The translations under genes were made by a program, and so were the position numbers. DNA of 48,387 nt, taken from the IMG/VR virus record IMGVR_UViG_3300017700_000797, positions 1-48,387 of that record. The stretch is one strand, 5' to 3'. This DNA is from a virus (Duplodnaviria > Caudoviricetes). Under the pieces are notes generated by a model. It worked only from the letters and a program-made list of their open reading frames with translations, had not been told where the DNA came from and did no database searches. Positions 451 to 45,509 of this stretch are shown here, piece after piece (within the stretch, counting starts at the first letter, position 1; each line of letters begins with the position of its first letter).

Positions 451-475
451 GTCGGGGCAGTTTGCTGTTATTCTG

Positions 476-505
476 TGCGCGCATTACTGTCCGGTAATGC
501 GCGCA
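476..505. repeat. Dispersed palindrome copy 1
   Basis: TGCGCGCATTAC-tgtccg-GTAATGCGCGCA with TTCTG/TAAAA flanks, intergenic after capsid gene. Confidence 0.95.
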
Positions 506-535
506 TAAAACTATCCACCCAAAAGGCCAACTGCC

Positions 536-3995: not shown

Positions 3996-4022
3996 TATAG
4001 TTGTTAAGTCATAGATATTCCG

Positions 4023-4052
4023 TGCGCGTATTACTGTGGAGTAACGTGCGCA
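4023..4052. repeat. Dispersed palindrome copy 2
   Basis: TGCGCGTATTAC-tgtgga-GTAACGTGCGCA, intergenic. Confidence 0.95.
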
Positions 4053-4085
4053 TAAAACATCCCCCAATCCCCACCTGAGCCAACC

Positions 4086-9232: not shown

Positions 9233-9272
9233 AAGGGGGAGGATGCGGGGGAGCGTCGGGGGGAGGGTTCGG

Positions 9273-9302
9273 CGCGCGCGTTACAAAATAGTAATGCGCG
9301 CA
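9273..9302. repeat. Dispersed palindrome copy 3
   Basis: CGCGCGCGTTAC-aaaata-GTAATGCGCGCA. Confidence 0.95.
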
Positions 9303-9483
9303 TGGAATAGGGCCGGACTGCCGGAGCTACCGCTCGGAGCTAACCACCCGCGCCCTATTAACAAGTAGCAGCCAGCAGCAGTAGTAACAGCAACAGTTAA
9401 AGTGTCCCGAGAATGTGCCCGGAGCTAGCCCACCCAACCTACTGCCAGCCGCCCGACGAGGGGGGGGGTAAGTCAACAGAATT

Positions 9484-9513
9484 AGTTTAATGTGCACTGG
9501 CGGTATGTGTCAA
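9484..9513 (-). promoter_or_regulatory. Putative sigma70 promoter, antisense to the late operon
   Basis: Minus strand TTGACA-N18-TAAACT. Confidence 0.45.
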
Positions 9514-9630
9514 GCCCTAATTGCAAGTTGTCGGGCCGGGCGGTAGCCGGTGGCTGCGGCGGCTGTACTTGCTGCCAGTCCCAGCTCCTGTCACTGTCGG
9601 TCAGTCCCTCGTCGGTCTTGGGCCGGGGTG

Positions 9631-9669
9631 GCTGAAGCACGGAAGCGCTCGCTGCCCCGGTCGTTTTTT
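9631..9669 (+). terminator. Putative intrinsic terminator
   Basis: Upstream GGCCGGGGTGGC pairs with GCTGCCCCGGTC, followed by TTTTTT. Confidence 0.5.
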
Positions 9670-9677
9670 CGATTCCA

Positions 9678-9707
9678 CGCGCGCGTTACTCCCGAGTAAT
9701 GTGAGGG
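9678..9707. repeat. Dispersed palindrome copy 4
   Basis: CGCGCGCGTTAC-tcccga-GTAATGTGAGGG (AGG variant arm). Confidence 0.9.
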
Positions 9708-9740
9708 TAAAACTCCCAATTTCTTTTCAGCGAGCGTCAA

Positions 9741-13713: not shown

Positions 13714-13726
13714 GGGTGGGGTTCTG

Positions 13727-13756
13727 TGCGCACGTTACAGCGGAGTAACGTGCGCG
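13727..13756. repeat. Dispersed palindrome copy 5
   Basis: TGCGCACGTTAC-agcgga-GTAACGTGCGCG. Confidence 0.95.
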
Positions 13757-13821
13757 TGGAATTGAGGTGGGCTGAGAGGTGGCGGGAGTTATCGGGGCAC
13801 TAAATAGCGGCCCCACAAACG

Positions 13822-13862
13822 ACGGGAGGGAATAGACATAGTTGCCTATTCCCTCCCGTTTT
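13822..13862. terminator. Intrinsic (probably bidirectional) terminator between convergent late and replication operons
   Basis: ACGGGAGGGAATAG / CTATTCCCTCCCGT 14-bp stem, followed by T run. Confidence 0.8.
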
Positions 13863-13938
13863 GCGTTGAATGGCGGTATGCTCTACCCCCCTACGTTTTG
13901 ATCCCCGGATTGGCCGGAACGCGCCGCCCGGAGTCAGT

Positions 13939-14241
13939 TCATTCTATGCGCGTATTACTATCCAGTAACGTGAGGGTAGAACTCTCAGGATTGCAAAGCC
14001 GTAGCAGTATGTCCCCATGACATGCCTGCGGGGCACAGTAACAGATTAGGGACTTTCCTCGCAGCCGTTCCTTTATCAATGTCAGGAGTTGGGGTCGGGC
14101 CAGAATCCATGCCTCGTAAAGCCTGACAACATCTTCACGGGAGCCATGTTGGCCGATGTGGAAAGGATTGCCGAATAGAGAGGGGCGACCTATGTACACC
14201 CCCTCTCTGTTTGGGTCGGCTACATGATAGACCTTAATCAC
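13939..14241 (-). CDS. DUF4326-like protein
   Basis: VYIGRPSLFGNPF...LRGKSLICYCAPQACHGDIL; likely GTG start at 14241. Confidence 0.8.
   Translation of the reverse strand: MIKVYHVADPNREGVYIGRPSLFGNPFHIGQHGSREDVVRLYEAWILARPQLLTLIKERLRGKSLICYCAPQACHGDILLRLCNPESSTLTLLDSNTRIE
13947..13976. repeat. Dispersed palindrome copy 6
   Basis: TGCGCGTATTAC-tatcca-GTAACGTGAGGG; overlaps the 3' end of the DUF4326-like gene. Confidence 0.9.
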
Positions 14242-16723
14242 ACTGCCCCCAGCTCGATTTGCTGCTGACAATTCCCACAGGGATTATGAGCGGCGTTTCG
14301 TACGGCAGCACGATTTGGCACTCTTCCACGATCCGGCGCAAGGCCCAATCACCATGATGGGACTCGAATTGCCCGGCCAGGGAATCGTGCACTTGCAGGA
14401 GGATTTCCACTTCCGGCAGGTTGTCGTCGATGTTGGCGTAGGCACGGTTAATGAGGCAGCCGGTAGTGGACTGTCCTAGCCATGCAACGGCTTGGTTGAA
14501 AATTGTGCCCTCGATCCTGTCGAAGAAGTGGAACTTGTACCCAAACACGTTTTGAATCCAGCGGCGCTTTGTAACTTGCTTCTTGACGTCCTCCTGCCAC
14601 TTCTTGATTTCTGGGCACATGCCATAGTACCACTTCTGGATGTTGTCAGTTTCGTGGACGTTGAGGCCGATGCGAGGGGCGATGCCTGCGGCAGTTCCCA
14701 GGTAATTGGTGCCATGGCAGAGAGCTTTGAACATTCCGTACTCCCTGGGATGGCTGTTCTTGTCCATGGCCCTGTTCTTGTAATATTCCCGCATCACCTC
14801 AACGTAAGGCTTACGTCCGTTGGCAAAGTGGTCCAGCATCCACAGGCAGTTGGATTCGCCAGTAACCACTCGTAAGTCGGATGAGTCCAGGTCGATGTCA
14901 AAGAACGTGCAGCCAGGGTCTGGGATGTAAAGCGTGCGAATGTTCGGTAGCTCAAGACCTTCATCTTCAGTGTCGCCCCCCTTCGGGATATTCTGAAGAT
15001 TAGCCCCGGTTCCAAACGCGTTCTTTGCACTTGCGAATCGGTAAGTGTCAGTTCCGCAGACATTGAAGCTAGATCGCATCCGGCCGTCGGTATCAAGAGG
15101 AGCCTGTATGAAGGTCGAATGAAACACACCAAGGCTTCGTAATTCGGCAATCTTACGCGTAACCGGCTGCAGTATCGGTTCACGCGCAGCAATCCTATGA
15201 AGCGCCTCGTCATCTGTCGTTACTCCTTTCGTTTTCTTGCTGATAATCGGTTTCAATCCCATTTCCCGATAGAAGAAATCGGCCATCTGCTTCGGGGACT
15301 TGATATTGATAACGCGGCCCAGGACTTGCTGCATCCAGTCTTCGCGAGTCGCCACTTCCCCCTGCACGGCCATGGCGAAGCGGAGACGCTCTTTCATGTC
15401 CACACGCAGGCCACGGTTCATGGTCTTCAGAACTCGTGGTGCGAGTCGCTGTTGGAAGTCGTCGACGGCTTGGACGCCAAGCGCTTTGACAACTGAACAT
15501 AGAACTTCCTCGATCGCCAGGGTCCGCACAGCATCCGTGCAGTTGTAAATCCAATACTTATCCTCCCCCTCTCCTTTTGGCCCCTCCGTCCAGTTGGTCC
15601 TGTCATCTTTCCAGTAGAGGTGATCATCCAGGTACATCGACGATAGGAAAGCAAGATTTTTCTCCAGGTTGCTGAAGCAACTATGCTGTTGAATCATCGT
15701 GTCCTTAACAGACGGGCAGATGAAGTGCCACCAGCGCCAGAAGTACTGTGCGTCGTAGTTCCAGTTCTGGCCGACAATCGTGACGAGTTGGCACAGCTGA
15801 TAGATGAGGAAGACGAGTTCCGCTTCCTCTTCGGCCGCCCAGTAACCAGAGAGCTTTTCCTGGTGCTCGGCTAGGGCTTCGTCGTAGTCGTGCAGCATGT
15901 GTTCGTACTGCTTATCAGAGATATTTTTACCCTGGATAGGAAGGAGGGGCATCGGCCCTGGCGTCTGCATGAACGGAATGCAGATAGCGTCGGTTTTGGA
16001 CTTGGCGAATGCAATGCAGCTAATGTGCCCGGCGCGGGTTTCGATGTCGCCGCCGATCTTCTGGCGCTGCCCCATGTTGTCTTTATACAAGGTCGCGTCT
16101 TGGATCATCGCTTCCAAGTAGTCACAAGCCTGCTCAAACGTCGGCCGGATCAGGAAGTTGTAAACCGTACGCTGTATCTCTGGGCCGGCGCTCTGCTTCT
16201 TTGCCCTTGCCAGGTCATGCACGATGAGAGGCCGGAGACGCCACTGCGGCATGACCATAGCGGGGCTGATGGTTGGAATAACTTTCTGGCCAGGGACAAG
16301 TGTGGAGTCCATGATGCTTGAGCGCCACGAACCGGCACCCCATTCACCAGTAAGAGCCCACAGAGCAAGGTTCCCGAAGGTGACCACAACATTTGGCTTG
16401 ACTCTCTCGATCTCACCGCGGAGCTGATCCAAGCTCTCCACGACCGATGGTAAAACATACTTCCCGTTGCAGTATACGTGGGCATGAGTGATATCCTTCT
16501 TTTTGGTTGCAATAATGGTTTCGACTTTGCCCTGCGGTACGCGGTCCTTCATGACCATCGTCACGTAGCAATGCTCGAAGTAGATGCCGACTTCCTGCAG
16601 CATCTTGCGGAGTTCGTAGCCGGGGCCGCCGACGAATGGGGCGGAGTTGAGCAGGTCCTGTTCGTGCGGGAATTCTCCGACGAGCATGATCTTGGCAGTG
16701 TGGGGACCGGTAGGTATAATCAT
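14234..16723 (-). CDS. Family A DNA polymerase with N-terminal uracil-DNA-glycosylase-like (SPO1-type) domain and 3'-5' exonuclease
   Basis: N-terminal IMLVGEFP...PFVG; exonuclease DIET, QNWNYD, YNCTD; NLQNIP; motif A DLDSSDLR; motif B KALCHGTNY; motif C QVHDSL. Confidence 0.92.
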   Translation of the reverse strand: MIIPTGPHTAKIMLVGEFPHEQDLLNSAPFVGGPGYELRKMLQEVGIYFEHCYVTMVMKDRVPQGKVETIIATKKKDITHAHVYCNGKYVLPSVVESLDQLRGEIERVKPNVVVTFGNLALWALTGEWGAGSWRSSIMDSTLVPGQKVIPTISPAMVMPQWRLRPLIVHDLARAKKQSAGPEIQRTVYNFLIRPTFEQACDYLEAMIQDATLYKDNMGQRQKIGGDIETRAGHISCIAFAKSKTDAICIPFMQTPGPMPLLPIQGKNISDKQYEHMLHDYDEALAEHQEKLSGYWAAEEEAELVFLIYQLCQLVTIVGQNWNYDAQYFWRWWHFICPSVKDTMIQQHSCFSNLEKNLAFLSSMYLDDHLYWKDDRTNWTEGPKGEGEDKYWIYNCTDAVRTLAIEEVLCSVVKALGVQAVDDFQQRLAPRVLKTMNRGLRVDMKERLRFAMAVQGEVATREDWMQQVLGRVINIKSPKQMADFFYREMGLKPIISKKTKGVTTDDEALHRIAAREPILQPVTRKIAELRSLGVFHSTFIQAPLDTDGRMRSSFNVCGTDTYRFASAKNAFGTGANLQNIPKGGDTEDEGLELPNIRTLYIPDPGCTFFDIDLDSSDLRVVTGESNCLWMLDHFANGRKPYVEVMREYYKNRAMDKNSHPREYGMFKALCHGTNYLGTAAGIAPRIGLNVHETDNIQKWYYGMCPEIKKWQEDVKKQVTKRRWIQNVFGYKFHFFDRIEGTIFNQAVAWLGQSTTGCLINRAYANIDDNLPEVEILLQVHDSLAGQFESHHGDWALRRIVEECQIVLPYETPLIIPVGIVSSKSSWGQCD

Positions 16724-17043
16724 ATTTTATTCTCCTGTGCAATGAGTGGATTGACGAGACTGGCGATCTGTCGACAGACCCCAGCAAATTCCTTTACAAA
16801 GGCTTCGTTAGCTGTTATCTTTACATCAGCCGCGTCAAGGTCCCATTGTAGGTTGTTAATTTCACTGCGATGGTTGGCTTCCATAGCGTCCATTTGACAC
16901 TCAAGTTCCTTGAGGTCATCTGATTCCCGATCAATAAGGAAGCGGCTCCGTTCCATTAGTTCTTGTTGCGCCGCTTTGTCGTCCGGTGTAACTGCCAACC
17001 AGCGACCTAGTTCAGCATTGGACAAGCGATTGTAGATCATCAC
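16720..17043 (-). CDS. Hypothetical coiled-coil protein
   Basis: 107 aa, overlapping stop/start with both neighbours. Confidence 0.6.
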   Translation of the reverse strand: MMIYNRLSNAELGRWLAVTPDDKAAQQELMERSRFLIDRESDDLKELECQMDAMEANHRSEINNLQWDLDAADVKITANEAFVKEFAGVCRQIASLVNPLIAQENKI

Positions 17044-18440
17044 ATCCCCATCAATGACTGCAGTTCCTTGGCCATGCGATCACCATCCGCCGCCGTACCA
17101 TGATTCACAGTATCCGCAGCCACGATCGAATCCAGGTTCTGCATCCGGCTATGGATCATGCTGAAATACTCCGGGTTCAGTTCCAACACCGTTGCTTCGC
17201 ACTTGTACTTGTGGCAGGCCGGGACGAGCGTACCGGAGCCGGCGAATGAGTCCAGGACTTTGTCCCCGGCCCGCACGCTCCGAACGAGCAATTGCTCGAA
17301 CAGCTCCACGGGTTTCTGCGCGCCATGCGTCATGTTGGCGTCGGCGTAGGAGGTGAGCACATCGGGGTAGATCGCGGTGACGGGCTTCTTGCCCTTGATC
17401 GCGTAGAGCAACGTCTCGTATTGGCGGCGCGGCCCCTCAAACGGCAGCGGCACGCGACCCGAGCCGGGCTTCGTGCAAATGAACGGCGTACGGAACACGT
17501 ACCAGCCAGCGGCCTGCATCATGCGTTTCAACTCGTGGAAGTTGTCGATGTCGCAGAACACGTAGGCGTGCGCTTGCGGCTTGGCAATGCGGAAGGAGAG
17601 TGGGCACCACGCCTCCATCAGGGCTTTCCAGTGGTCGTAGTCGTCCTTGTAGTGGTGTTCGTTGTTGGTCAGGCGCCCGCCGCCGCCATCGCCGAAGGTA
17701 TCTGCGCCCATGCCGTATGGCGGGTCCGTGAGGATGACGTCGTAGTAGCCTGCGTCGTGCGCGGCCATCCACGTGAGACAGTTAACATTGTGCGCTTTGT
17801 GCACGGAAGCGTTGAAGGTAGTGCCGACAGCGGCAGCGTTTTCAATGTTCTTTTGCTGCGCTTCTTGCTTCTTGATGATCTTGTAGGCTTCGTTGACATC
17901 TTTCGCTTTCGCAACTGCGGGATCGTGAAGGAACTTTGCTACAACAATCTCGCGGCGAGTGGCTTCCTGGAAAGAGCCGTCGGAACGGCCTTTGACTTCA
18001 ATGGCTGTGTCAGCCACGGAATGTACACGGCCTTCGGACTGCGCTTTGGCGCTGCGAATGCGGTGCAGCTTCGCCATGGCATTGCTGGACTCTTGCCACG
18101 TCAAGTCCTTGCGACGGATGTTTTCTTCGAGCTCGGCTTCTTCCGCTTCGAGTGCCGAGAGCTCCCCCAAGGTCACGTAGGGGATCATGCCTTCCGGCAC
18201 CAGCTGGTTGTTGTAGCGGAAGCTGCCGGCGAGTGCCCAGATGTTGTCGATGGCACGGATGCGGGTTTCGCCTGCGACGAGGATGAGCTTCCCACCTTCT
18301 TCACGCATGACAGGGGCGTGCAGCAGACCTTTGGTTTCGATCCCGGTCGACATTTCCTGAATCTTTACCGGATCGAATTCTTTGCGCTGGCGGTCGGGGC
18401 GAATGACGATGGCTGCGCGAGGGGCGAATTGCATTTGCAT
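17040..18440 (-). CDS. ParB-like CTPase/HTH domain fused to an N6-adenine/N4-cytosine DNA methyltransferase
   Basis: RQRKEF, GLLHAP, LVAGETRIRA, ELEENIRRKDL (ParB boxes); DPPY, HGAQKP, VLDSFAGSGT (beta-class amino-MTase). Confidence 0.9.
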   Translation of the reverse strand: MQMQFAPRAAIVIRPDRQRKEFDPVKIQEMSTGIETKGLLHAPVMREEGGKLILVAGETRIRAIDNIWALAGSFRYNNQLVPEGMIPYVTLGELSALEAEEAELEENIRRKDLTWQESSNAMAKLHRIRSAKAQSEGRVHSVADTAIEVKGRSDGSFQEATRREIVVAKFLHDPAVAKAKDVNEAYKIIKKQEAQQKNIENAAAVGTTFNASVHKAHNVNCLTWMAAHDAGYYDVILTDPPYGMGADTFGDGGGGRLTNNEHHYKDDYDHWKALMEAWCPLSFRIAKPQAHAYVFCDIDNFHELKRMMQAAGWYVFRTPFICTKPGSGRVPLPFEGPRRQYETLLYAIKGKKPVTAIYPDVLTSYADANMTHGAQKPVELFEQLLVRSVRAGDKVLDSFAGSGTLVPACHKYKCEATVLELNPEYFSMIHSRMQNLDSIVAADTVNHGTAADGDRMAKELQSLMGM

Positions 18441-19850: not shown

Positions 19851-20300
19851 TCAGTTCTCCAAAACGTGTAGGTAGAGGAAATCCACCCCCATACCGCAGC
19901 TGTTGAGGACGGCTGAGGTTCCTTCAACCGCTTCCGTGGCGCATAATCCGGCATTGAGAAGGGCCAGGGCTGGGGACATGCCACAACCAGCTGTGACGAG
20001 TGGGCCTTCTACTTCAAAAGGGACCGGGGAGGACTCGAATTTCAAGCAAGTGCCGTCGAGCCGAATATAGAGGAGGCACGGACCTTTGTCTGGATCACGC
20101 CAATCGGAGCGGAAAGTTGCCGGATCACCCCCGTCACGGAGCCACTGCATCATTTCCATCCCCATGGAAAAGTTACCGGTGATGCCCAAGAGTCCATGGC
20201 CATGCCAGCGGAAGATTTTAGTGACAGCTGCAATGGCGTCACCACAGGTGGATTGCTTGTCGGCGGCGAGCATCTTGCCGTCCCAGGCTAGTACAGTCAT
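19851..20300 (-). CDS. HslV/proteasome-beta-like Ntn hydrolase
   Basis: MT N-terminus (Thr1), LAADKQST, TKI, TAGCG. Confidence 0.65.
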   Translation of the reverse strand: MTVLAWDGKMLAADKQSTCGDAIAAVTKIFRWHGHGLLGITGNFSMGMEMMQWLRDGGDPATFRSDWRDPDKGPCLLYIRLDGTCLKFESSPVPFEVEGPLVTAGCGMSPALALLNAGLCATEAVEGTSAVLNSCGMGVDFLYLHVLEN

Positions 20301-20329
20301 GATAGGCTTTCAGTTGGTTGAGGGTTTTG

Positions 20330-20359
20330 CGCGCGTATTACTCGGGAGTAATGTGCGCG
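20330..20359. repeat. Dispersed palindrome copy 7
   Basis: CGCGCGTATTAC-tcggga-GTAATGTGCGCG. Confidence 0.95.
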
Positions 20360-20364
20360 TGGAA

Positions 20365-21237
20365 TTACACAGCGCGGCCGCCCCTGGACTTCCACTTCTC
20401 AATAATCGGCCCGAAGTCCGCCGGCAGACCTTGCCCGACTTTCAGGTTCCGAGTCTTGACATCGGCCAGGGCGCTCCCCGTATCCCAGCTCCATTTCGTC
20501 CCTTCCCGCACGGTCAGGATGACGTCCGAGAACATCGGTGGGAGCTTCGGACCGAGTGCCTTGCCCAGGGAACTGAGCATGATCTTCGTGCCGCCGAGCA
20601 CAGCATCGGTTTCGCGCTCGACATGGCTGATCAGGACGAAGTGGCACTTGAGCTGATTGGTGAGCATGAAGAGCAGGGTTTCGACCTGCTTCTGCGCGAT
20701 GCCCCAATCGCTCTGGTTGCTGACGGCCTTGCCCCCGACCACGAGCCCCATCGCCGCGCGGCAGAGGCCCGCCATGCCGTCCATCACCAGCATACGGTTC
20801 GGCCCCCAGGTATCGGTGCAGCCGAAGGATTGGCCGGTGCGGTCGTCCTTGAAGTCGTTCAGCGCCGTGAGGATTTTCGTGAACTGATCGTACTTCGAGC
20901 GGTTCGGGTCGGCGAGCTTTGCCAGCGTGTCGAGCGACATCGTGTTGACCTTGGTCGCGTTCTGGATGAGTTCCGCGAACGAGGCCTTCTGCGATTCCAC
21001 TTCGTGCCAGTGGAGGTTCGGAGGCACCGGCTTGCCCTTGTCGGTGAAGTAACCGATGAGGGATTCCAGGCCGGGTTCGAGGCCGAGGTAGAAGACCTCG
21101 ATACCGGCGTCGACTGCAGTGCCGATGGCTGTGGTCTTGCCGGTGCCAGCTGGGCCCATCAAGAGCACGTTGACACCACGGAGGGTGGAAGCGGCTTGGA
21201 GTTGTGTTTCAACGCCTGGGAGGGTTTCAGTAGACAT
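20365..21237 (-). CDS. AAA-family ATPase (Sak4/AAA_24-like recombinase)
   Basis: Walker A GPAGTGKT, Walker B LVMDG, LISH; next to SSB and nuclease genes. Confidence 0.75.
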   Translation of the reverse strand: MSTETLPGVETQLQAASTLRGVNVLLMGPAGTGKTTAIGTAVDAGIEVFYLGLEPGLESLIGYFTDKGKPVPPNLHWHEVESQKASFAELIQNATKVNTMSLDTLAKLADPNRSKYDQFTKILTALNDFKDDRTGQSFGCTDTWGPNRMLVMDGMAGLCRAAMGLVVGGKAVSNQSDWGIAQKQVETLLFMLTNQLKCHFVLISHVERETDAVLGGTKIMLSSLGKALGPKLPPMFSDVILTVREGTKWSWDTGSALADVKTRNLKVGQGLPADFGPIIEKWKSRGGRAV

Positions 21238-23659: not shown

Positions 23660-23881
23660 TTACGACATGAAGTCGTCGAGCAGCGCGTTGCTGTCGATAG
23701 GGGCAGCTTTCGCTTTCGCAGTGGCCGTTTTGGTCTTGCTGGCAGTCGAGACAACCTGCGCGCCCATGCGGTCCTTGCGAATCGCGTCGACAGCTTGACG
23801 GGCTTCGGCGACGGTCAGCGTGCCGTCACGGGCTTTCTGGCGCCAGATTTGGATACTGCTCATAATGGTTTCATTGCTCAT
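23660..23881 (-). CDS. Hypothetical protein
   Basis: 73 aa, AGGAG RBS, ends IDSNALLDDFMS. Confidence 0.7.
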   Translation of the reverse strand: MSNETIMSSIQIWRQKARDGTLTVAEARQAVDAIRKDRMGAQVVSTASKTKTATAKAKAAPIDSNALLDDFMS

Positions 23882-24594: not shown

Positions 24595-24625
24595 TTGAAT
24601 CTCCTTAAGGTGTGGGTGAGTTTTA

Positions 24626-24655
24626 CGCGCACATTACACCGGAGTAACGTGCGCA
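24626..24655. repeat. Dispersed palindrome copy 8
   Basis: CGCGCACATTAC-accgga-GTAACGTGCGCA. Confidence 0.95.
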
Positions 24656-24699
24656 TGGAATTAATATAACCGAGCCGGTGTCAGTAGTCACGCACGGAA

Positions 24700-26673: not shown

Positions 26674-26898
26674 CTATTTGTTGAGAGTGATCCAGCTAGC
26701 AATTGCAGCTGGCGCGGGAAGATCGCAGATGCTGACATCACGGAACTGGTACTTGTTCACCTCTTCGGAAGTGCCGTCGTGGAAAGCCGGTTCCCAGCCT
26801 GTGAGGTGTTCCTCGACTTGCAGGATGAGCAGCGAGGGCTTGAACCAGCGCCGATGCTCACGGAATCTGGTCTTACCAGTGAGGGTGCGGGTAATCAT
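26674..26898 (-). CDS. Hypothetical protein
   Basis: LTGKTRFR...LLILQVEE...FRDV; ATGA overlap with upstream gene. Confidence 0.55.
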   Translation of the reverse strand: MITRTLTGKTRFREHRRWFKPSLLILQVEEHLTGWEPAFHDGTSEEVNKYQFRDVSICDLPAPAAIASWITLNK

Positions 26899-27098
26899 GC
26901 TGGGCTCTCTTCCAGCCAACCGGCGTCCATCTTCTTGTAGTGCTCGCGGAGCAGCTTTTCGATCAGCTGCGACTGCGCACCGATCGGAATCCGGCCGTCG
27001 ACTTCAGAATAGAGTTCCAGCTCCATCCGCGCCACGATGTCTTGTGGCAGGGAGATGTTCTTGCTGATGCGTGGGGTGAGGCCTTTGGGACGGGACAT
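26895..27098 (-). CDS. Putative ribbon-helix-helix DNA-binding protein
   Basis: RISKNISLPQDIVARM...SQLIEKLLREHY pattern (CopG/Arc-like, with a loop insertion). Confidence 0.55.
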   Translation of the reverse strand: MSRPKGLTPRISKNISLPQDIVARMELELYSEVDGRIPIGAQSQLIEKLLREHYKKMDAGWLEESPA

Positions 27099-31263: not shown

Positions 31264-31315
31264 TCCGGCGTCTCTCAGTAACAGCAATTTTCTCACTCAG
31301 TAATTGGCAATTCCA

Positions 31316-31345
31316 CGCGCACATTACACCGGAGTAATGCGCGCG
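31316..31345. repeat. Dispersed palindrome copy 9
   Basis: CGCGCACATTAC-accgga-GTAATGCGCGCG. Confidence 0.95.
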
Positions 31346-31374
31346 TGAAACTCCCAACAAACTGCACAGGCAAC

Positions 31375-31512: not shown

Positions 31513-32178
31513 TTACTCGGCGGCGCCGGCTTCTGCCAGTTCGTCCTGGACTTCCGCTTCGCCGGCCGTTGCTGGCGACACGCCCAGACCGTTCAGCAGT
31601 GCATCGCTGTCGATCGGATTCGCCTTGACCTTGGTGCTGCGGGCTGCCTTTTCGGCTTCCAGGCGCTTGACGATCGGGTCGAGCTTCGGATTGCCGCGCA
31701 GGGCGATCTTCTGCGCATGGGTCTTGTTCGACAGGAACAGCATCACGTCGGCCTTGGACTTGCCGGTCATTTCGATCAGGGCTTTGCACAGGATCGAGGC
31801 GCCAGCCATACCATTCGTGTCGCGGGTCGCGTTCCACTCGCCCTGTTCCAGGCGAATCAGCAGCGCGTCGATGGCAACGACGCAATCTTCGACGTCAACC
31901 ACGCCTGCGATCTCGTCGCCCAGCTTCTGCTCGGCGCCGTGGGCAGCGAACTTGTGCAGCAGGGTGGCGACGATGTTGTAAGTGCGGGTTTCGCCGTTGA
32001 CGAAGTCAATGCGGACGACGACTTCGCCTGCGTTGGGTTCGTCAGCACCGGCGATGGTGTGCGACTTGATCATTTTGCGTTTGCCCGCGAATTCGACATC
32101 GCGGCCGTCATCCATGCGGACGGTGATGGAAGGGGTTTTGACTGCTACGGCTGCGGCGTTCGTGGTATCGGTGGACAT
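31513..32178 (-). CDS. Hypothetical protein, paralog of 36787-37485
   Basis: F.NGE, HG..QKL.D, WN..R, LR.NP, DSDALL shared with 36787-37485. Confidence 0.8.
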   Translation of the reverse strand: MSTDTTNAAAVAVKTPSITVRMDDGRDVEFAGKRKMIKSHTIAGADEPNAGEVVVRIDFVNGETRTYNIVATLLHKFAAHGAEQKLGDEIAGVVDVEDCVVAIDALLIRLEQGEWNATRDTNGMAGASILCKALIEMTGKSKADVMLFLSNKTHAQKIALRGNPKLDPIVKRLEAEKAARSTKVKANPIDSDALLNGLGVSPATAGEAEVQDELAEAGAAE

Positions 32179-32775: not shown

Positions 32776-32993
32776 TTTGGGGGCCCTTCACGAACAGTTT
32801 GGATCACTGCCCACACAATTACCCATGGCCAGAAAATTCCACCGACAACCAGATAGAAAAAGACCTTGCCAAAGCTTTCGTGTTCCTGCAGTAGTTCTTG
32901 CCGAGCCACTTCAGGTGTTGTGATCCATGCGTCTAACATATAGCCAGTGTACACCACTACGCCGGCAAGGTACACAGCAAGAAAGATGTTCAT
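32772..32993 (-). CDS. Small membrane protein
   Basis: Two hydrophobic segments, IFWPW. Confidence 0.6.
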   Translation of the reverse strand: MNIFLAVYLAGVVVYTGYMLDAWITTPEVARQELLQEHESFGKVFFYLVVGGIFWPWVIVWAVIQTVREGPPK

Positions 32994-33610
32994 GGTTGCT
33001 TCCCCTTCGGCAGTGGTCTGCCGTATTTGTTATCCGGTCCCAGGTACTCCCGATACGGCACTTTCTTCCCCTTAACCCGAAACCCCCACGTGCCCTGATA
33101 CTTCCACGTGATGAACAGCGTCCACACTCCGCCCTCGCTGACGCTGACGATGTTATGGAACATTCTGAGGTTGAGCTTGCAAGTGTCGCCGGGCAGACGC
33201 AAGTGGTGTTCCGTGTAGTCGCGGATATGGGCTTGGACTTGCTCTTCCCATGGCCAGCCTGTTATTTGCTCTTCCCAGCCTGCCAACCGCTCTTCCCGGT
33301 ATGACCCGCGCAGGATTACTGTGCGAGCTTCCCATGGATGGTCGTGCAGATGCGGATCGAGGTCTTGCCGCATGATGTGATGCAGGCGCACACTCGGAAA
33401 CCAGCGACGCCAGCCCTTGCGTGTGCCGCCTTTGCCGAAGCTGTAACGGTTGAGCAGCCAGAATCGGCGCATGTAGTAGGTGCCGTCAGGGTCCTGCAGG
33501 TGCGCGTAAGGGGATTCGCTGCTGTGGGTGATGAGCCAGTCCACCACGCGAGGGCGGCAGAGCTGACGCGCAAGCTGTTGCCACAGCCATTCCGTGAGCC
33601 GGGCGATCAT
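32990..33610 (-). CDS. Cupin-like phage protein
   Basis: RLHHIMRQD.DPHLHDHPW...GSYRE...FHNI...VWTLFIT. Confidence 0.7.
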   Translation of the reverse strand: MIARLTEWLWQQLARQLCRPRVVDWLITHSSESPYAHLQDPDGTYYMRRFWLLNRYSFGKGGTRKGWRRWFPSVRLHHIMRQDLDPHLHDHPWEARTVILRGSYREERLAGWEEQITGWPWEEQVQAHIRDYTEHHLRLPGDTCKLNLRMFHNIVSVSEGGVWTLFITWKYQGTWGFRVKGKKVPYREYLGPDNKYGRPLPKGKQP

Positions 33611-33786
33611 GCTGACTGCTCCAAGACGCAGCCGATGAGGCCACAAAGGCAGAGGCCGAGGCCGACGACAGCCCCTGTGGTAGCGATGAGTTGGCCGGTG
33701 GACTCTGCCGGGAGCATGAGTTCCAGGATCAAAAAGCCGACAGCGGTTAGGCCGCCGATTGCTATGAGGAGTTCAGATTCGGGCAT
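33607..33786 (-). CDS. Small two-TM membrane protein (59 aa, not in ORF track)
   Basis: AAGGAG RBS; MPESELLIAIGGLTAVGFLIL...; ATGA overlap with downstream gene. Confidence 0.55.
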   Translation of the reverse strand: MPESELLIAIGGLTAVGFLILELMLPAESTGQLIATTGAVVGLGLCLCGLIGCVLEQSA

Positions 33787-34880: not shown

Positions 34881-34914
34881 AAGTAGCCTCATGGGGTCAG
34901 TTTGTCGAGTTATG

Positions 34915-34944
34915 CCCTCACGTTACAATGGAGTAATGTGCGCA
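34915..34944. repeat. Dispersed palindrome copy 10
   Basis: CCCTCACGTTAC-aatgga-GTAATGTGCGCA. Confidence 0.9.
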
Positions 34945-35454
34945 CAAAACCCATTATCCATGCCCCGGCTCAGTAGTCACGCCCTTTTGCCGCAGCTCCT
35001 ACCCACTAGCAATAGCAACGTGCACACGCCCGCACACGTAGGCACACGCCCGCGTCATCCACGCGTGTCATGCCCCCGCGTGTACAGTAGGTTTTAAAAA
35101 CAGCCCCCACCCCCAATTCCGGCCTCCGGTTTGGCTCCTAACTATTGGCCGGTATCAGGCGCGAGCGCAGCTGACGCGCACAACAAACCACAATTGGCTG
35201 CGGCGCGGGAGGGTGATTGCTCGGGCCACGGCACGGCGACACGGGGTGCATTTGGCCGTGGGGAGTTGTCCAGGGGGCGCGGCTGGGGGTGAGTTTTCGG
35301 GGCATGGAATAGAGGCCCGTGGCGGCGTTTGTGTGCTGGGGGTAGGCGAGGGTAGCCGGAGCCTCCCGTTCGTGCCGTGGCGGTGCCATTCCGGGCCGGG
35401 AAACCGATTCCGCGATCCGGCCAATCCCCCGATTCCGCTCCCCAGCCCGTTCCC

Positions 35455-36139: not shown

Positions 36140-36155
36140 TGTTCCACGTGGAACA
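36140..36155. promoter_or_regulatory. parS: parS site 1 (canonical chromosomal type)
   Basis: TGTTCCACGTGGAACA, perfect palindrome. Confidence 0.9.
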
Positions 36156-36165
36156 CTGGCCCGCG

Positions 36166-36390
36166 TTAGCGTTTGCCGTTAGGCGTCGTCGGAGTGGCGA
36201 GATAGTACACTGCGGCTTCGATGCTCCAGCCACGTGCCCGGAGATAGCGCGCCGCTTTGTACGTGCCGAGAGTCCGACCGATATGGCGGGCGTGGGCAGG
36301 GACGGATTTGCCCTTGGCATTGTGCGTGCACAGGCCGTTAGGAGTCCATACGCCGGGCGCTAGGCCGTTGCTGTAGGGGATGCGGGGCAT
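36166..36390 (-). CDS. Hypothetical protein
   Basis: GTYKAARYLRARGWSIEAA; AAGGAG RBS. Confidence 0.6.
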   Translation of the reverse strand: MPRIPYSNGLAPGVWTPNGLCTHNAKGKSVPAHARHIGRTLGTYKAARYLRARGWSIEAAVYYLATPTTPNGKR

Positions 36391-36391
36391 G

Positions 36392-36703
36392 CTAGGCTCC
36401 TTCCGGTGGCTGTGGGGCGGCGTTAGCCATAGCGACCCGAGTAGCGGCGAGGTGCTCATTCACGGCGTCGTAATGGTGCAGGGCGTATTCGCTGATTGCG
36501 GCGCGCAACGTGACGAAGGTTTCGTTGGCAAGTGCCATGTTGCCCTGTTCACATGCGCCGTGGAAAACACGAAGCAGAGTGACAACGTGTAAAGGGCTGA
36601 CAACAGGGTGAGGTACGATGTCGAGAGGGAATCCGGGGAGAGGGGGCTCCGGGGTGAAAGCTGAACGGGGCGTAAGCGGGTGATTGGTACGGGTAATAGG
36701 CAT
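36392..36703 (-). CDS. Hypothetical protein
   Basis: AAGGAG RBS; packed in early operon. Confidence 0.5.
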   Translation of the reverse strand: MPITRTNHPLTPRSAFTPEPPLPGFPLDIVPHPVVSPLHVVTLLRVFHGACEQGNMALANETFVTLRAAISEYALHHYDAVNEHLAATRVAMANAAPQPPEGA

Positions 36704-36739
36704 GATGAGTCTCCTTTAGATTAGTGAGAGGGAGTTCTA

Positions 36740-36769
36740 TGCGCGCGTTACAGTGGAGTAATGTGCGCA
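36740..36769. repeat. Dispersed palindrome copy 11
   Basis: GTTCTA-TGCGCGCGTTAC-agtgga-GTAATGTGCGCA-TAGAAC. Confidence 0.95.
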
Positions 36770-36786
36770 TAGAACCCGGTTCGGAA

Positions 36787-37485
36787 TTAGGCCTTGGCCG
36801 AATCGTTGCTTTTACCCTTGCCACGTGGCTTGGCCTTAGGCGCGGGGAACGATGGGACAATAGGGGCTTCCGGGGCAGGTGTCAATTCCTCTTCCGGTTC
36901 CTCTTCCGGTTGCTCTTCCGAGCCGTCGTCGGCCTCAACGTCCATGCCGCCCCCGACCATCAGGGTATCGAGCAATGCATCGGAGTCTACGCCCGTGGTA
37001 TTCGCCGTTTCCACCTGCAATTGCGCGATGATTTCCACGATCCGTGGATTCTTCCGCAGGGAGGCCACTTCATCCTTGGAACGGGCTTCGAGCCATGCCA
37101 TAGCATCGGCGCGGCTTTTGCTGGTGAGGCGCATAACGGCGCGCAAGAGGAGGCCGCCCTTGTTGCCACCCCCTTCGCCGTTGCCACGGGCCTTGTTCCA
37201 CGTGGAACCTTCCGGCAGCGTGATGCGGTTATAGACGTCGAGCACGGCATTGTATTTGTCGGTGATGGTCGCGGTGCGCCCGGTGTCAGGATCGCGGGCG
37301 ATGGCTGCGGCATCGATGAGCTTTTGCTTCAAGCCGTGCATCATCGCCGCGTGCTGGATTTCCGGCGAGAGGGAGAGGGAATCAACGGTCAGGCGCTCGC
37401 CGTTGGCGAACGTGAGGGAGAGGATAGGGCCAGCGATTTCGGCGCTGACTGCGGTTGCGAGTTTTTTGTTTTGTGCGGTTGCCAT
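36787..37485 (-). CDS. Hypothetical protein, paralog of 31513-32178
   Basis: Shared motifs (see paralog); acidic then basic tail. Confidence 0.8.
   Translation of the reverse strand: MATAQNKKLATAVSAEIAGPILSLTFANGERLTVDSLSLSPEIQHAAMMHGLKQKLIDAAAIARDPDTGRTATITDKYNAVLDVYNRITLPEGSTWNKARGNGEGGGNKGGLLLRAVMRLTSKSRADAMAWLEARSKDEVASLRKNPRIVEIIAQLQVETANTTGVDSDALLDTLMVGGGMDVEADDGSEEQPEEEPEEELTPAPEAPIVPSFPAPKAKPRGKGKSNDSAKA
37194..37209. promoter_or_regulatory. parS: parS site 2 (inside CDS)
   Basis: TGTTCCACGTGGAACC. Confidence 0.85.
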
Positions 37486-37579
37486 GATTGAGCCTCTTTA
37501 GTGGTTACGGTTATGCGCATGTGCGCTGGGAAGAATATCCCCGTTAGGCTCGCGTTATGAGCTGCCTAACGGTGAGAAT

Positions 37580-37789
37580 CTATTCAATGCCGAGAGTGTC
37601 TTGTGCCAGCCCGATAGGCATAGCGCCATAGGCACGGCCCCCGATAGAATCTTGGATGTGCGCCGCCCAATAGGAGGTGGCATAGTCGCGCTCATCGTCT
37701 GTAAGCTTTGGCAAACATACGTCGATAGCCTTTTGGATACTGGCTTGACATGCGAGGATAGCGCGGGCCGTTTTCTTGGTCATTGGCAT
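37580..37789 (-). CDS. Hypothetical protein
   Basis: AGGAG RBS, 69 aa. Confidence 0.55.
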   Translation of the reverse strand: MPMTKKTARAILACQASIQKAIDVCLPKLTDDERDYATSYWAAHIQDSIGGRAYGAMPIGLAQDTLGIE

Positions 37790-37817
37790 GATTGATGCTC
37801 CTAATAAGGGGGTGAAA

Positions 37818-38120
37818 TTACCACGTAGGGAAGTCGTTTGCCTCAATTGCCGGGAATGGGTTCTCCCCGTTGCGCCAGCCGCTTTGCCCATCCGGCATCA
37901 AGTACCATTTGTCATCCGACGGCGAGAGGGCATATACCCAGCCGTGGTACTCGAAATGTGGCACACGTTGATTGTGACTATGCCCGGCGAAAGCCCCGGC
38001 AACCGTGCCATCGGTGCCATCGCCCCATATGACCATATCATAGGCCAGCTTGGCTTTGTACGTGCGGTACTCAATGCCGAAATCGGCGAGTACACGGGTT
38101 TTGAAATCGGCTTCAAGCAT
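37818..38120 (-). CDS. Hypothetical protein
   Basis: GGAG RBS, 100 aa. Confidence 0.55.
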   Translation of the reverse strand: MLEADFKTRVLADFGIEYRTYKAKLAYDMVIWGDGTDGTVAGAFAGHSHNQRVPHFEYHGWVYALSPSDDKWYLMPDGQSGWRNGENPFPAIEANDFPTW

Positions 38121-38171
38121 GATGCGTGCTCCTATTTGTTAGCGGGGGCAGGATTGTCCCGGTTAGCCTCA

Positions 38172-38187
38172 TGTTTCACGTGGAACA
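38172..38187. promoter_or_regulatory. parS: parS site 3
   Basis: TGTTTCACGTGGAACA, nested in a longer CGGTTAGCC...GGCTAACCG inverted repeat. Confidence 0.9.
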
Positions 38188-38219
38188 CTGGCTAACCGTG
38201 AGAGTCCAGCGGTTCGGGT

Positions 38220-38522
38220 TTAGCCTAGTGTGGTGCGGCGATGGGCTTCGTATTCCAAATGACGGTGTTTGGTGCCTTCGATGAGGGCATAGCCGTAGTC
38301 GGTCAGGTCATACGCTTCGCCGTCCCAGCCAATAATCCCGGCTTTGGAGAGGGTATCCAAGGCAACGAGGCTTGCGTAATGATGGGCACCGATAGTCAGG
38401 CATTCGGCAAACGCCGGTTCGGTGCATTGAGTCGAGCACTCGGCATGGATCGCGTAGAGTTCCTGCGGGCCGCATGCGGCGATGAGGTCGAAGATGCATT
38501 CCGTGGCGTAGTAGTGTTTCAT
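38220..38522 (-). CDS. Hypothetical protein (possible winged-helix-like C-terminus)
   Basis: LDTLSKAGII...YDLTDYG; AGGAG RBS. Confidence 0.55.
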   Translation of the reverse strand: MKHYYATECIFDLIAACGPQELYAIHAECSTQCTEPAFAECLTIGAHHYASLVALDTLSKAGIIGWDGEAYDLTDYGYALIEGTKHRHLEYEAHRRTTLG

Positions 38523-38608
38523 GGGGGGAGACTCCTAACGGTTAATGAGGTGGACAATCGGACGGCTGAGAGTCCAGCCGGTTACAGCACATGCGATGAG
38601 GACGAGGA

Positions 38609-38776
38609 TCATGCCACGACTACGCTAGCAACCAGTTGCACGGCGTCATAATCAATGCGTGCGGCGCATGTGTGCCCATTCAATGCCGCCCATGCCGTAA
38701 CACGGTCAGCGGCATGGATGCATACATTAGTGATGAATTCGCCGTCGAGGTAGAGGTCAAAACTAAATGCGTACAT
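38609..38776 (-). CDS. Hypothetical protein (first early gene)
   Basis: GGAG RBS, ATG 38776, downstream of a sigma70-like promoter. Confidence 0.5.
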   Translation of the reverse strand: MYAFSFDLYLDGEFITNVCIHAADRVTAWAALNGHTCAARIDYDAVQLVASVVVA

Positions 38777-38821
38777 GGCTGACTCCGGTTCGGTGAGGCA
38801 CGTCGTGTGCCGATGAAATTC

Positions 38822-38849
38822 ATTGTACGCCGATGGTTGAGGGTTGCAA
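38822..38849 (-). promoter_or_regulatory. Putative early sigma70 promoter
   Basis: Minus strand TTGCAA-N16-TACAAT. Confidence 0.6.
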
Positions 38850-38907
38850 GCGGTTTCAATCAAATAGATGCAAATAGTTTCCAGCCTCTCCGGCGGGGTA
38901 TGTTTTG

Positions 38908-38937
38908 CCCTCACATTACTCCGGTGTAATGTGCGCG
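38908..38937. repeat. Dispersed palindrome copy 12
   Basis: CCCTCACATTAC-tccggt-GTAATGTGCGCG. Confidence 0.9.
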
Positions 38938-39489
38938 CCGAACTACCCCGACACTCTCCAGGCTACCGAAAACCGGCCAGCCGCGTCAAACCGGTTTGGA
39001 TGGCTCGTCACGGCACGCTGGCTCAGGTTGATAGGAACATACCAGCCGCTCGGCGTTCGTGCCACCACGGCGTTTTCCCCCTTTCAGGCACGCATCTTGC
39101 TAGTCGGCGCAACTCTTCTATAAGAGTCAGCCTCACTCTTCTATAAGACTGCTGTTGCTATGGTCAGCGGCTCAGCAATAGAGCGCGGCTATCGTTGCGG
39201 GCCGAGTCCAGGCTGCGTAGCGGTGTTGTCAGAGTGATAACGAAATGGGTAAAGCGGGGCGCGGCTGGCTACGCCGACAACGAGCACGGGTGGGAATCAG
39301 GAGGGGAGGGCGATGAGGGATGAGGGGGCATTGTACTATGTGCACCACAGTTCCCTACCCAATATCCCGCCCGCGCACGTGTACCCATGCGAATACTGTA
39401 CCGAGTGGTATTCGGTCAATGCTATCGATTCCTCGCAGGTGATAGTCGAGGTATGCTATCGATAGTAGGCAGGTGATAGCTGGAAGCTA

Positions 39490-39505
39490 TGTTCCACGTG
39501 GAACC
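39490..39505. promoter_or_regulatory. parS: parS site 4
   Basis: TGTTCCACGTGGAACC. Confidence 0.85.
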
Positions 39506-39706: not shown

Positions 39707-39818
39707 AAACTCAGGCCGCGCAAATGTACGTAATACACCTCGGGAGATTTTTGCAAATTTTCCACAAGAGTGTTGTCACTTTGTCTACTCCCTCCTCTCC
39801 TCAGTCCTGCTAGTTCTG

Positions 39819-39848
39819 CCCTCACGTTACTAGCGAGTAATGCGCGCG
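39819..39848. repeat. Dispersed palindrome copy 13
   Basis: CCCTCACGTTAC-tagcga-GTAATGCGCGCG. Confidence 0.9.
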
Positions 39849-40022
39849 CCGAATGGTTATTAAGGAACAGCAATTAGCAGTAGGGACGGCGCATGGCTTA
39901 TACCCGTTAGTATTACTGAGCACTTTGCTAGTCGCTACTTCCTCGTGTCAGTTCACGTGTTGCTGTTAGTTGCAGTCAAAGGAACTATCATTGCATCATA
40001 CCACAGCGAGCAGGAGAACGAT

Positions 40023-40385
40023 ATGGCAGGAGCACAGCAAATCGACAAGGTGAAGCACATTCACGAGTGCATCATCAATGACATGATTGCGGAGCCCACT
40101 GTCACGCAAGTGGAGCTGTGCGAGCGCTTTGGCTACACGCGGGGCTGGATGTCGCGGGTTATTAACAGTGACAGCTTCCAGGCACGGCTGGCGCAACGCC
40201 GGCAGGAGCTACTCGATCCCGACCTCAAGGCGAAGTTGAACCAGCGGCTGGAAGCAGTGGTTACGCAGAGCATGAACCATATCCAGACGCGGCTGAACTC
40301 CTCGGAAGCCAGTGCTGACTTGGCACTGGCGAGCCTCGGAGTAGCTGCGGCCGGGCTTGGCGTGTTGAACCCACCGAAGCGGTAA
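40023..40385 (+). CDS. HTH-like protein, putative terminase small subunit (paralog A)
   Basis: TQVELCERFGYTRGWMSRVINSDSFQ; AGGAG RBS; upstream of terL. Confidence 0.6.
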   Translation: MAGAQQIDKVKHIHECIINDMIAEPTVTQVELCERFGYTRGWMSRVINSDSFQARLAQRRQELLDPDLKAKLNQRLEAVVTQSMNHIQTRLNSSEASADLALASLGVAAAGLGVLNPPKR

Positions 40386-40389
40386 AGCC

Positions 40390-40983
40390 ATGTCTACGAC
40401 AATTGAAGAGAACTCGGACGCGCTGCTGGACATCCTGCTTGGTGGGGAAGTGCCAGTTGCAGCAGCGTCTCCGGTGTTCACCTCGAAGGCAACTGCGAAA
40501 GCCACTGCCGAGCGCAAACCTGTCTACCATCCCGATGCGATGGTGCAGCTCATGGTCGAGCACCCTGAGTACACGCACGAAGAGTTCGCAGCGTACTTCG
40601 GCTACAAGCAGTCCTGGTTCGCCGGGGTGCTGATCAGCGACCGTTTCCAGAAAGCGCTGGAGCCGCGCCGGCACGAGATCAGCAACCCGATGCTAACCGG
40701 CACAATGCAAGATCTCTTTCGCTCGATGACGGTGCAATCCCTGGTGGTGCTGCAGCAGCGGCTGGAAGATCCAAAGGTGAGCGAGGACTTGATTATCAAA
40801 GCGATTACGGCTGGGGTGAAGGCTTTGGGCATGGGCACGCCGGGCATGGCGCTGGAAGTTCCAGTGGCTCCGCCGACGCTCGACCAACTCGCCAGCCGGC
40901 TGTCCAAGCCGAAGGCAATTGTTGCCAGTACCGAGGCCCGTGACTGGACGATCGAAGCTTCCCTCAATGAGATTCCGCGCTAA
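40390..40983 (+). CDS. HTH-like protein, putative terminase small subunit (paralog B)
   Basis: THEEFAAYFGYKQSWFAGVLISDRFQ; abuts terL. Confidence 0.6.
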   Translation: MSTTIEENSDALLDILLGGEVPVAAASPVFTSKATAKATAERKPVYHPDAMVQLMVEHPEYTHEEFAAYFGYKQSWFAGVLISDRFQKALEPRRHEISNPMLTGTMQDLFRSMTVQSLVVLQQRLEDPKVSEDLIIKAITAGVKALGMGTPGMALEVPVAPPTLDQLASRLSKPKAIVASTEARDWTIEASLNEIPR

Positions 40984-44656: not shown

Positions 44657-44864
44657 GCAAGTTCGGGAGTGGCGTCAACTCGACGCTACGAAAGCGTTCC
44701 TCGCAGACCTGGAAAACCGGGTGGAGGAAGGTAAAGACACCTGGGCCCGTCAAGGGTATCTGCAGGAGACAGTAGAAGGAACGGCGATTGCGAATGCAAA
44801 AGCCCTGGGCGGGATGGAAATCCTGCAGACATTGATCAGTTTCCTAAAAGGGGAGGAAGAATGA
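44622..44864 (+). CDS. Hypothetical protein
   Basis: EWRQLDATKAFL; small post-portal gene. Confidence 0.65.
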   Translation: MQNQPAPAVKPEQVREWRQLDATKAFLADLENRVEEGKDTWARQGYLQETVEGTAIANAKALGGMEILQTLISFLKGEEE

Positions 44865-45442: not shown

Positions 45443-45451
45443 CCAATTCTG

Positions 45452-45481
45452 TGCGCGCATTACACCGTAGTAATGCGCGCA
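45452..45481. repeat. Dispersed palindrome copy 14
   Basis: TGCGCGCATTAC-accgta-GTAATGCGCGCA. Confidence 0.95.
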
Positions 45482-45509
45482 TAAAACATAGCCCTAAAAG
45501 GAAACTGCC

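Follow-up and report, generated by a model that had tools for sequence, protein, structure and literature searches.

Where on the DNA does a phage ParB protein load when its C-terminal part is a DNA methyltransferase? The question is raised by the gene at positions 17040-18440 (minus strand) of a 48,387-nucleotide stretch of viral DNA, IMG/VR record IMGVR_UViG_3300017700_000797 (Duplodnaviria; Caudoviricetes), a complete phage record with a terminal overlap of 123 bases (G000 in our genome set), which is called the window throughout. An original prediction, made from the sequence alone, had portrayed the gene product as a possible site-loaded, sliding methylase and had offered two families of candidate loading sites, 14 evenly spread palindromes and four parS sites. 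Our comparative analysis argues strongly that the fusion docks on the palindromes, and that it very probably reads the inner part of each site directly through a predicted helix-turn-helix (HTH) segment.

The fusion protein and the palindromes

The motifs quoted in the original prediction (GLLHAP, AGETRIRA, EENIRRKDL, HSVADTAIEV...TRREIVVA, DPPY, QKP and DSFAGSGT) are all present in an open reading frame (ORF) of 466 amino acids, in which they mark the following segments.

17040..18440, minus strand: fusion of a ParB N-terminal domain, an HTH and a beta-class amino-methyltransferase, 466 amino acids, core gene of the clade
18102..18422, minus strand: ParB nucleotide-binding fold, amino acids 7-113, with Box I RQR (variant), GLLHAP, Box II GETR and Box III EEN..R
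17931..18023, minus strand: HTH-like segment, amino acids 140-170, with model helices 142-150 and 155-168
17967..17975, minus strand: codons 156-158 (S-F-Q); S156 covaries with palindrome position ±4 and Q158 with ±7
17130..17813, minus strand: beta-class methyltransferase domain, amino acids 210-437, with DPPY, QKP and FAGSG

A profile of the first 205 residues matches the structures of Spo0J, ParB and Noc (E values from 9e-18 to 2e-13), while the Pfam family ParB_N is found with an E value of 4.6e-5 and 23.8 bits, a score under its curated cut-off of 26.3. The AlphaFold model of the protein (mean predicted local distance difference test score 74.8, predicted template modelling score 0.48) contains helices at residues 115-135, 142-150 and 155-168. 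The place usually taken by the ParB C-terminal dimerisation domain is occupied, as had been claimed, by a methyltransferase fold (residues 210-437), which is recognized by Pfam as N6_N4_Mtase (E value 3e-22) and matches M.BceJIV, CcrM and MboIIA in structure comparison at Z scores of 22.5-23.9. With these enzymes it shares both the fold and the motif order DPPY...FxGxG, in which motif IV lies ahead of motif I as is typical of the beta class; unlike M.BceJIV, CcrM and M.MboIIA, the methyltransferase of the window sits behind a ParB-HTH module. Neither a ParA protein nor a restriction partner for the methylase was found among the 64 ORFs scanned (against PHROGs in the case of ParA), and the N-terminus of the fusion lacks the ParA-binding motif LG(R/K)GL. 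The 4-mer bias of the DNA, consulted as a clue to the methylation target, shows the usual depletion of CTAG, GTAC and GATC alone and is uninformative.

The fusion gene belongs to the core of a large phage clade without cultured members in the main: 2,567 proteins match it among 8,000 scored candidates, full-length versions occur in only three named phage records, and its neighbors in nearly all genomes mapped are a single-strand-binding-like gene and a gene fusing a uracil-DNA-glycosylase domain to the DNA polymerase PolA. Comparing the presence of the fusion with that of the sites gave no contrast, because every Sak4-anchored locus of at least 12 kb matches the fusion, three of them partially. 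Among sequencing runs, one DNA run and no RNA run were listed as a source of the sequence.

The existence of exactly 14 palindromes was borne out. At approximately 44 bp, they exceed the length at first attributed to them.

469..512: palindrome 1, 44 bp, inner sequence RTTAC-N6-GTAAY
4016..4059: palindrome 2
9266..9309: palindrome 3
9671..9714: palindrome 4
13720..13763: palindrome 5, at the convergent late/early junction
13940..13983: palindrome 6, within the 3' end of the ORF 13939-14271 and the sole one centered in a listed gene
20323..20366: palindrome 7, the nearest upstream of the fusion gene
24619..24662: palindrome 8
31309..31352: palindrome 9
34908..34951: palindrome 10
36733..36776: palindrome 11
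38901..38944: palindrome 12
39812..39855: palindrome 13, at the divergent early/late junction
45445..45488: palindrome 14

With one mismatch allowed, 16 palindrome cores are observed in the window, far above the mean of 0.35 in 200 shuffles of its sequence. Although the listed genes cover 86% of the genome, 13 of the 14 sites are centered outside them, and no base is farther than 3,345 bp from a palindrome. The even spread that had been asserted holds: the coefficient of variation (CV) of the gaps is 0.59 in the window (p 0.03), with a median of 0.55 over 37 genomes. Two pairs lie close together (9266-9714, 405 bp apart, and 13720-13983, 220 bp apart), and similar pairs recur in relatives.

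A role of these elements as hairpin, terminator or cruciform was considered and rejected. Over 246 sites the two halves are less complementary to each other than randomly paired halves (3,299 versus 3,433±23 matches), which argues for a binding site read by protein on double-stranded DNA and possibly reflects a disadvantage of long palindromes that are perfect.

In each of the 29 IMG/VR relatives that were examined at the outset, and in MW202489, there are 6-16 sites built alike: they have TT near ±20, a GC-rich core of variable sequence at ±9-14, TTA at ±5-7 and a spacer of 6 bp. Ten shuffled genomes yielded 1-3 sites each. Among 27 further fusion-bearing records 22 have at least three sites, in a search that demanded TA at ±5/±6 and was thus blind to families with a changed inner sequence; the other five records are fragmentary, and in four of these the HTH is divergent. 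The palindromes also tile genomes whose virion genes differ from those of the window phage. G019, G020, MW202489, G025-G029 and G040-G054 possess the same replication module but give no tblastn match to the terminase, portal and capsid of the window, which suggests that their virion modules have been swapped.

An altered site type is found in the cultured Vibrio phage MF497422, whose ParB-methyltransferase has a divergent HTH. Its genome carries four exact CAATCG-N6-CGATTG sites (shuffle mean 0.01) near 183, 6578, 23369 and 38810 (L173:175-38817), which keep the 6-bp spacer and are devoid of conserved arms. Three side observations concern other distant members. In G060 (L498-L499) there is a three-copy palindrome family of the same geometry with an altered inner sequence, and the HTH carries a deletion; distant homologues (alignment A5, L333-L338) have hypervariable insertions of up to approximately 10 amino acids in the turn between the HTH helices. 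G035 and G038 yielded single, chance-like palindrome matches, and the fusion is unmatched in G035-G039.

Covariation of helix residues with the inner site

All usable alignment columns from a set of 13 core proteins served in turn as predictors of each site position in a regression corrected for phylogeny, with a tree built without the ParB gene and without the gene of a predicted ribbon-helix-helix (RHH) protein described below. The training set comprised 39 units, derived from 43 by removal of near-duplicates; a unit needed at least four sites to be included, and for L277 six sites were entered manually. The held-out set contained 25 units, each sharing less than 85% identity with the training proteins and with the other held-out units, with sites found without recourse to position ±4; 18 of these units are genomes fetched after the hypothesis on residue 156 had arisen. 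As the regression scores rest on approximate degrees of freedom, the permutation results alone count.

For site position ±4, residue 156 of the fusion ranked first among 1,808 columns in the training set, with a score of 10.1 as compared with 6.4 for the next column, and was not reached in any of 289 permutations. It ranked first again in the held-out set (1,791 columns, score 7.2; 0 of 100 permutations), and it also led the combined set of 64 units, with a score of 15.7 (0 of 200 permutations). The link can be stated as a rule over the 64 units: Ser156 goes with a majority of C at ±4 in 26 of 26 units, Gly156 with A in five of seven, and the singletons Phe, His, Ile, Trp, Asp and Tyr, which are bulky or acidic, with T in six of six. 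Within the held-out units the fraction of C at ±4 is 0.67-1.0 where residue 156 is serine (n=6) and 0-0.62 elsewhere (n=19). Residue 156 has undergone 11 changes by parsimony; in 10 of 11 non-overlapping pairs the member with serine has the higher C fraction, with one tie (sign test p 0.001). GC content does not explain the association (t 8.7 for the residue versus 1.5). For ±7, residue Q158 leads all columns of the combined set (score 10.7; 0 of 200 permutations), but it ranks only 51st in the training set taken alone. In the model, the two residues are found at the beginning of helix 155-168. The repetition of the covariation of residue 156 in held-out genomes marks the palindromes as the likely cognate site family of the ParB HTH.

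Several observations pull in the other direction. Ala156 predicts no single base at ±4 (T in eight, C in five and A in four of 17 units), and HMMER aligns residues 142-150, rather than 155-168, with the recognition helix of ParB, so that its register differs from that of the model. No palindrome family was detected in PP438425 or in three of the four fragments with divergent HTHs. Finally, the site positions are largely syntenic among relatives; their evenness is thus inherited and does not amount to 37 independent tests.

Other columns and methods can be reported briefly. PolA M59 passed the 99% null for the training set, and its signal is absent from the held-out set. Residues 208 and 379 of the fusion are the top columns for ±8 (scores of 7.7 and 7.0; 95% null 7.1 from 30 permutations). 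A partial Mantel test gave 0.34 for the ParB recognition helix versus 0.19 for the strand of the RHH protein, and it was in its output that the link between residue 156 and ±4 first showed. Its windows placed a methyltransferase loop (327-335) and PolA on top; the control distance accounted for little (r 0.19), and the tree-based regression took the place of this test.

The outer arms, the parS sites and other genes

The outer arms of the 44-bp site have a candidate reader of their own.

26895..27098, minus strand: core gene for a predicted RHH protein of 67 amino acids, candidate reader of the outer arms (N14 with ±12/13, I39 with ±16-18)

In the combined set, residue I39 of this protein is the top column for ±16, ±17 and ±18 (0 of 200 permutations each), and N14 is the top column for ±13 and ±12 (2 and 5 of 200 permutations, respectively), while its columns rank low for ±4 and ±7. 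The fold assignment draws on several searches: most top rows of the structure comparison are RHH proteins, yet at Z scores of just 4-5.1; Pfam RHH_1 is matched by one of 19 members of the gene family (E value 8e-4); and three weak PDB matches (E values of 0.5-0.7), two of which recur in the structure comparison, are to what we take to be RHH proteins. A Foldseek search with the model gave no match at an E value of 0.001 or below, and an Atlas search returned unnamed viral clusters only. Counting against a role of this protein, its links to the arms fail to repeat in the held-out set alone and are weaker than that of residue 156.

On balance, the covariation leads us to think that the RHH protein probably reads the outer arms, which would make the full site too long to arise by chance in a host. 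The inner 16-mer alone is expected approximately 9 times per 5 Mb at 58% GC, and a co-reader would therefore sharpen the discrimination between self and host DNA. The RHH protein has no match in MF497422, and the presence there of inner-type sites without arms fits a composite site with two readers. That the RHH protein is the sole reader of the palindromes, an idea prompted by a ParB helix that looked invariant by eye, was overturned by the Mantel test and the column scans.

The second candidate family, the four parS sites, is equally real (4 observed versus a shuffle mean of 0.005, with one mismatch allowed and 200 shuffles).

36140..36155: host-type parS 1, a perfect match, probably bound by host ParB and outside the system
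37194..37209: host-type parS 2, one mismatch
38172..38187: host-type parS 3
39490..39505: host-type parS 4, one mismatch

As loading sites for the fusion, they do not hold up. They are rare, with matches in nine of 60 viral relatives (not de-duplicated), one of these being a lone one-mismatch match, and in five of the 39 relatives that are at least 90% complete. They are clustered in the early region, adjoining a single early gene (that for a 232-amino-acid protein) wherever they occur in the genomes mapped, and just 19% of the window lies within 3 kb of one. R173 of Caulobacter ParB contacts parS and is conserved in parS-binding ParB proteins (PMC7383237). The corresponding position in the fusion is Gln158 or Val139, depending on the register, and thus in neither case an arginine. 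The parS sites probably recruit the host ParB, separately from the fusion; hijacking of host ParB via the four early-region sites (36140-39505) is possible. The genome of phi29 carries parS sites for the host protein Spo0J (PMC2731898). This lytic phage resembles the window phage in having several host-type parS sites (PMC2731898), a parallel that covers the four parS sites only.

A few other genes of the window deserve mention. The ORF at 14234-16723, part of the clade core, encodes a DNA polymerase of family A joined to the uracil-DNA-glycosylase domain mentioned above. Two paralogous core genes (31513-32178 and 36787-37485) and a core gene for a 73-amino-acid protein (23660-23881) have a C-terminal DS(D/N)ALL-type motif in common, and palindromes flank the 221-amino-acid gene of this set in nearly all genomes mapped. 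Two tandem HTH-like paralogues (39945-40983) lie directly upstream of the large terminase gene, the first of which is retained where the virion module differs. Labels from PHROGs point to an HslV-family peptidase (19851-20300), a cysteine-dioxygenase-like protein (32990-33646) and a GroES-like protein (44861-45442).

Mechanism, alternatives and precedents

How might docking on the palindromes be put to use? At each of the 14 sites distributed over the genome, the HTH of the fusion would bind the inner 16 bp (RTTAC-N6-GTAAY), possibly assisted by the small RHH protein bound to the arms. If ParB and KorB are taken as a guide, the nucleotide pocket would then gate closure of a clamp. Beta-class methyltransferases dimerise, and such a dimer could stand in for the lost C-terminal domain and close the ring. 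The clamp would slide over 1-3 kb and methylate nearby phage DNA in cis, and this methylation may shield the progeny DNA from host restriction. We hold this load-and-slide self-methylation to be possible, with a confidence that falls somewhat short of even. Doubtful, in our estimation, is a more elaborate version, according to which RHH dimers on the arms license the loading of the clamp at composite 44-bp sites approximately 3.5 kb apart, the restriction to methylation in cis confines a potentially promiscuous enzyme to the viral genome, and the specificity is rewritten in each phage by a co-evolving helix, strand and site.

The pocket speaks with two voices on this point. The ParB motifs had been called intact; they are present, but the pocket that they form is non-canonical in Box I (RQR) and Box II (GETR). 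Residues R19, G57, E58, R60, E106, N107 and R110 are retained in 63-64 of the 64 de-duplicated relatives, and pocket residues and catalytic motifs of the methyltransferase taken together in 62-64. Box II reads GERR in 46 of the 64. Sliding is burdened by the remainder of the evidence. The first arginine of Box II is replaced by threonine in 16 of 64 units, the window protein included, and R17 of Box I aligns with the catalytic Gln52 of Myxococcus ParB, a residue listed as required for hydrolysis (PMC13229309); the invariant Q18 adjoining R17 might take over from it. The fusion lacks the ParB C-terminal dimerisation domain, and phage ParB activators of T-dioxygenases function despite mutations in their nucleoside triphosphate (NTP) pocket (PMC13229309). 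Two purified ParB-N6N4 fusions (Dataset S5) are missing from the NTP binders listed in section 8 of the accessible survey text (PMC12704722); they differ from the window protein, and according to the authors NTP binding may require DNA (PMC12704722). Such data on other ParB fusions weigh mildly against NTP gating here.

The closest precedent is KorB-OB/KorA-OA of plasmid RK2, which likewise combines a ParB-family protein, its own palindromic operator, a small DNA-binding partner and a kilobase range (PMC11790492). KorB forms a cytidine triphosphate (CTP) clamp that loads at OB and slides up to 1.5 kb; this sliding has been demonstrated, whereas that of the window fusion is only inferred, and KorB bears no enzyme and represses promoters whereas the window protein carries a methyltransferase (PMC11790492). 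The operators OA and OB lie apart from each other, and KorA does not belong to the RHH type; the window palindrome, by contrast, has the look of a single 44-bp site with one part nested in the other. The fusion stands outside ParABS and would work like KorB at OB. With ParB-parS and Noc-NBS it shares the ParB N-terminal fold, an HTH, a palindromic core of approximately 16 bp and specificity set by few helix residues, and in the model-based register it has Gln at the R173 position, as in Noc (PMC7383237). Differences from these systems are the absence of ParA, of LG(R/K)GL and of the C-terminal dimerisation domain, the 6-bp free spacer, the variant Box I and the fused methyltransferase. A further connection between phage ParB and DNA modification is provided by the ParB-dependent phage T-dioxygenases; there, in contrast to the window protein, ParB is a separate activator that has no DNA-binding domain and tolerates mutations of its NTP pocket (PMC13229309).

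Against this background four other explanations need to be weighed. The fusion may be a KorB/KorA-like regulator or genome organizer, whose ParB part binds the palindromes together with the RHH protein and whose methylase acts as a site-independent orphan. RHH proteins are mostly repressors, and the sites lie at fixed operon junctions, often directly upstream of the same genes. Sites are also found, however, where genes converge and in narrow gaps within operons, and virion modules unrelated to one another are tiled by them; no promoter-like motif at a fixed distance emerged from 326 oriented sites, in which both the orientation and the gene calls were crude. Throughout the clade, moreover, the fusion is retained and its catalytic motif is intact, and we regard this explanation as rather unlikely.

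Alternatively, docking could be static, with methylation at or beside the sites or by looping, the pocket serving as an allosteric or dimerisation switch and RHH dimers holding the fusion in place. The arginine in place of the catalytic glutamine, the GETR version of Box II and the missing ParB C-terminal domain fit such a picture, flanking RHH dimers could block the exit of a clamp, and a different phage ParB can do without its NTP residues (PMC13229309). The NTP-binding Arg, Glu and Asn are nevertheless invariant, and a spacing of sites more even than random fits range-limited spreading; we judge static docking to be unlikely.

In a third explanation the palindromes are read by another protein, either the RHH protein alone or a host factor, the link to residue 156 is indirect, and the fusion is an ordinary orphan anti-restriction methylase. 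Covariation is not equal to binding, the PolA column also exceeded its training null, and the RHH gene is core, with a strand that varies with the site type by eye. Since residue 156 came first for ±4 in both independent sets, where RHH columns rank low, the PolA signal did not repeat, and MF497422 has inner-type sites with no RHH match, this explanation is highly improbable. Loading at parS, either alone or in addition to the palindromes, might be expected from their excess over chance and from the homology of the fusion to ParB, but is barely credible in view of their rarity, their clustering at one gene, their short reach and the missing arginine.

Docking on the palindromes would give a frequent type of phage protein an address. 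That ParB-methyltransferase fusions occur in phages had been stated in the original prediction and agrees with a survey, in which fusions of the ParB CTPase fold to N6_N4 methyltransferases are reported as frequent and an anti-defence role is suggested (PMC12704722). The surveyed proteins have the same architecture as the window fusion (PMC12704722), for which we can now add a family of predicted sites and a protein that may read them jointly with it, whereas no target site, partner or activity is stated in the accessible survey text (PMC12704722). Our literature search, which left most subscription journals outside its reach, found no paper in which loading sites of a phage ParB-methyltransferase are described. 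New here are the replication in held-out genomes, the nested 44-bp site together with an RHH protein as its candidate second reader, the removal of parS from the candidates, and a phage in culture, MF497422, on which the idea can be tested.

Few ParB fusions of phages are commoner than those with a methyltransferase, and the survey, in its accessible portion, assigns them no target or function (PMC12704722). With the predicted site, the residue-to-base rule and MF497422, a cultured phage that has its own version of the system, the question can be put directly to experiment. Should sliding prove true, a DNA-modifying enzyme would be addressed by a ParB clamp, a new manner of discriminating self from host DNA, and the fusion might become a tool for region-limited methylation.

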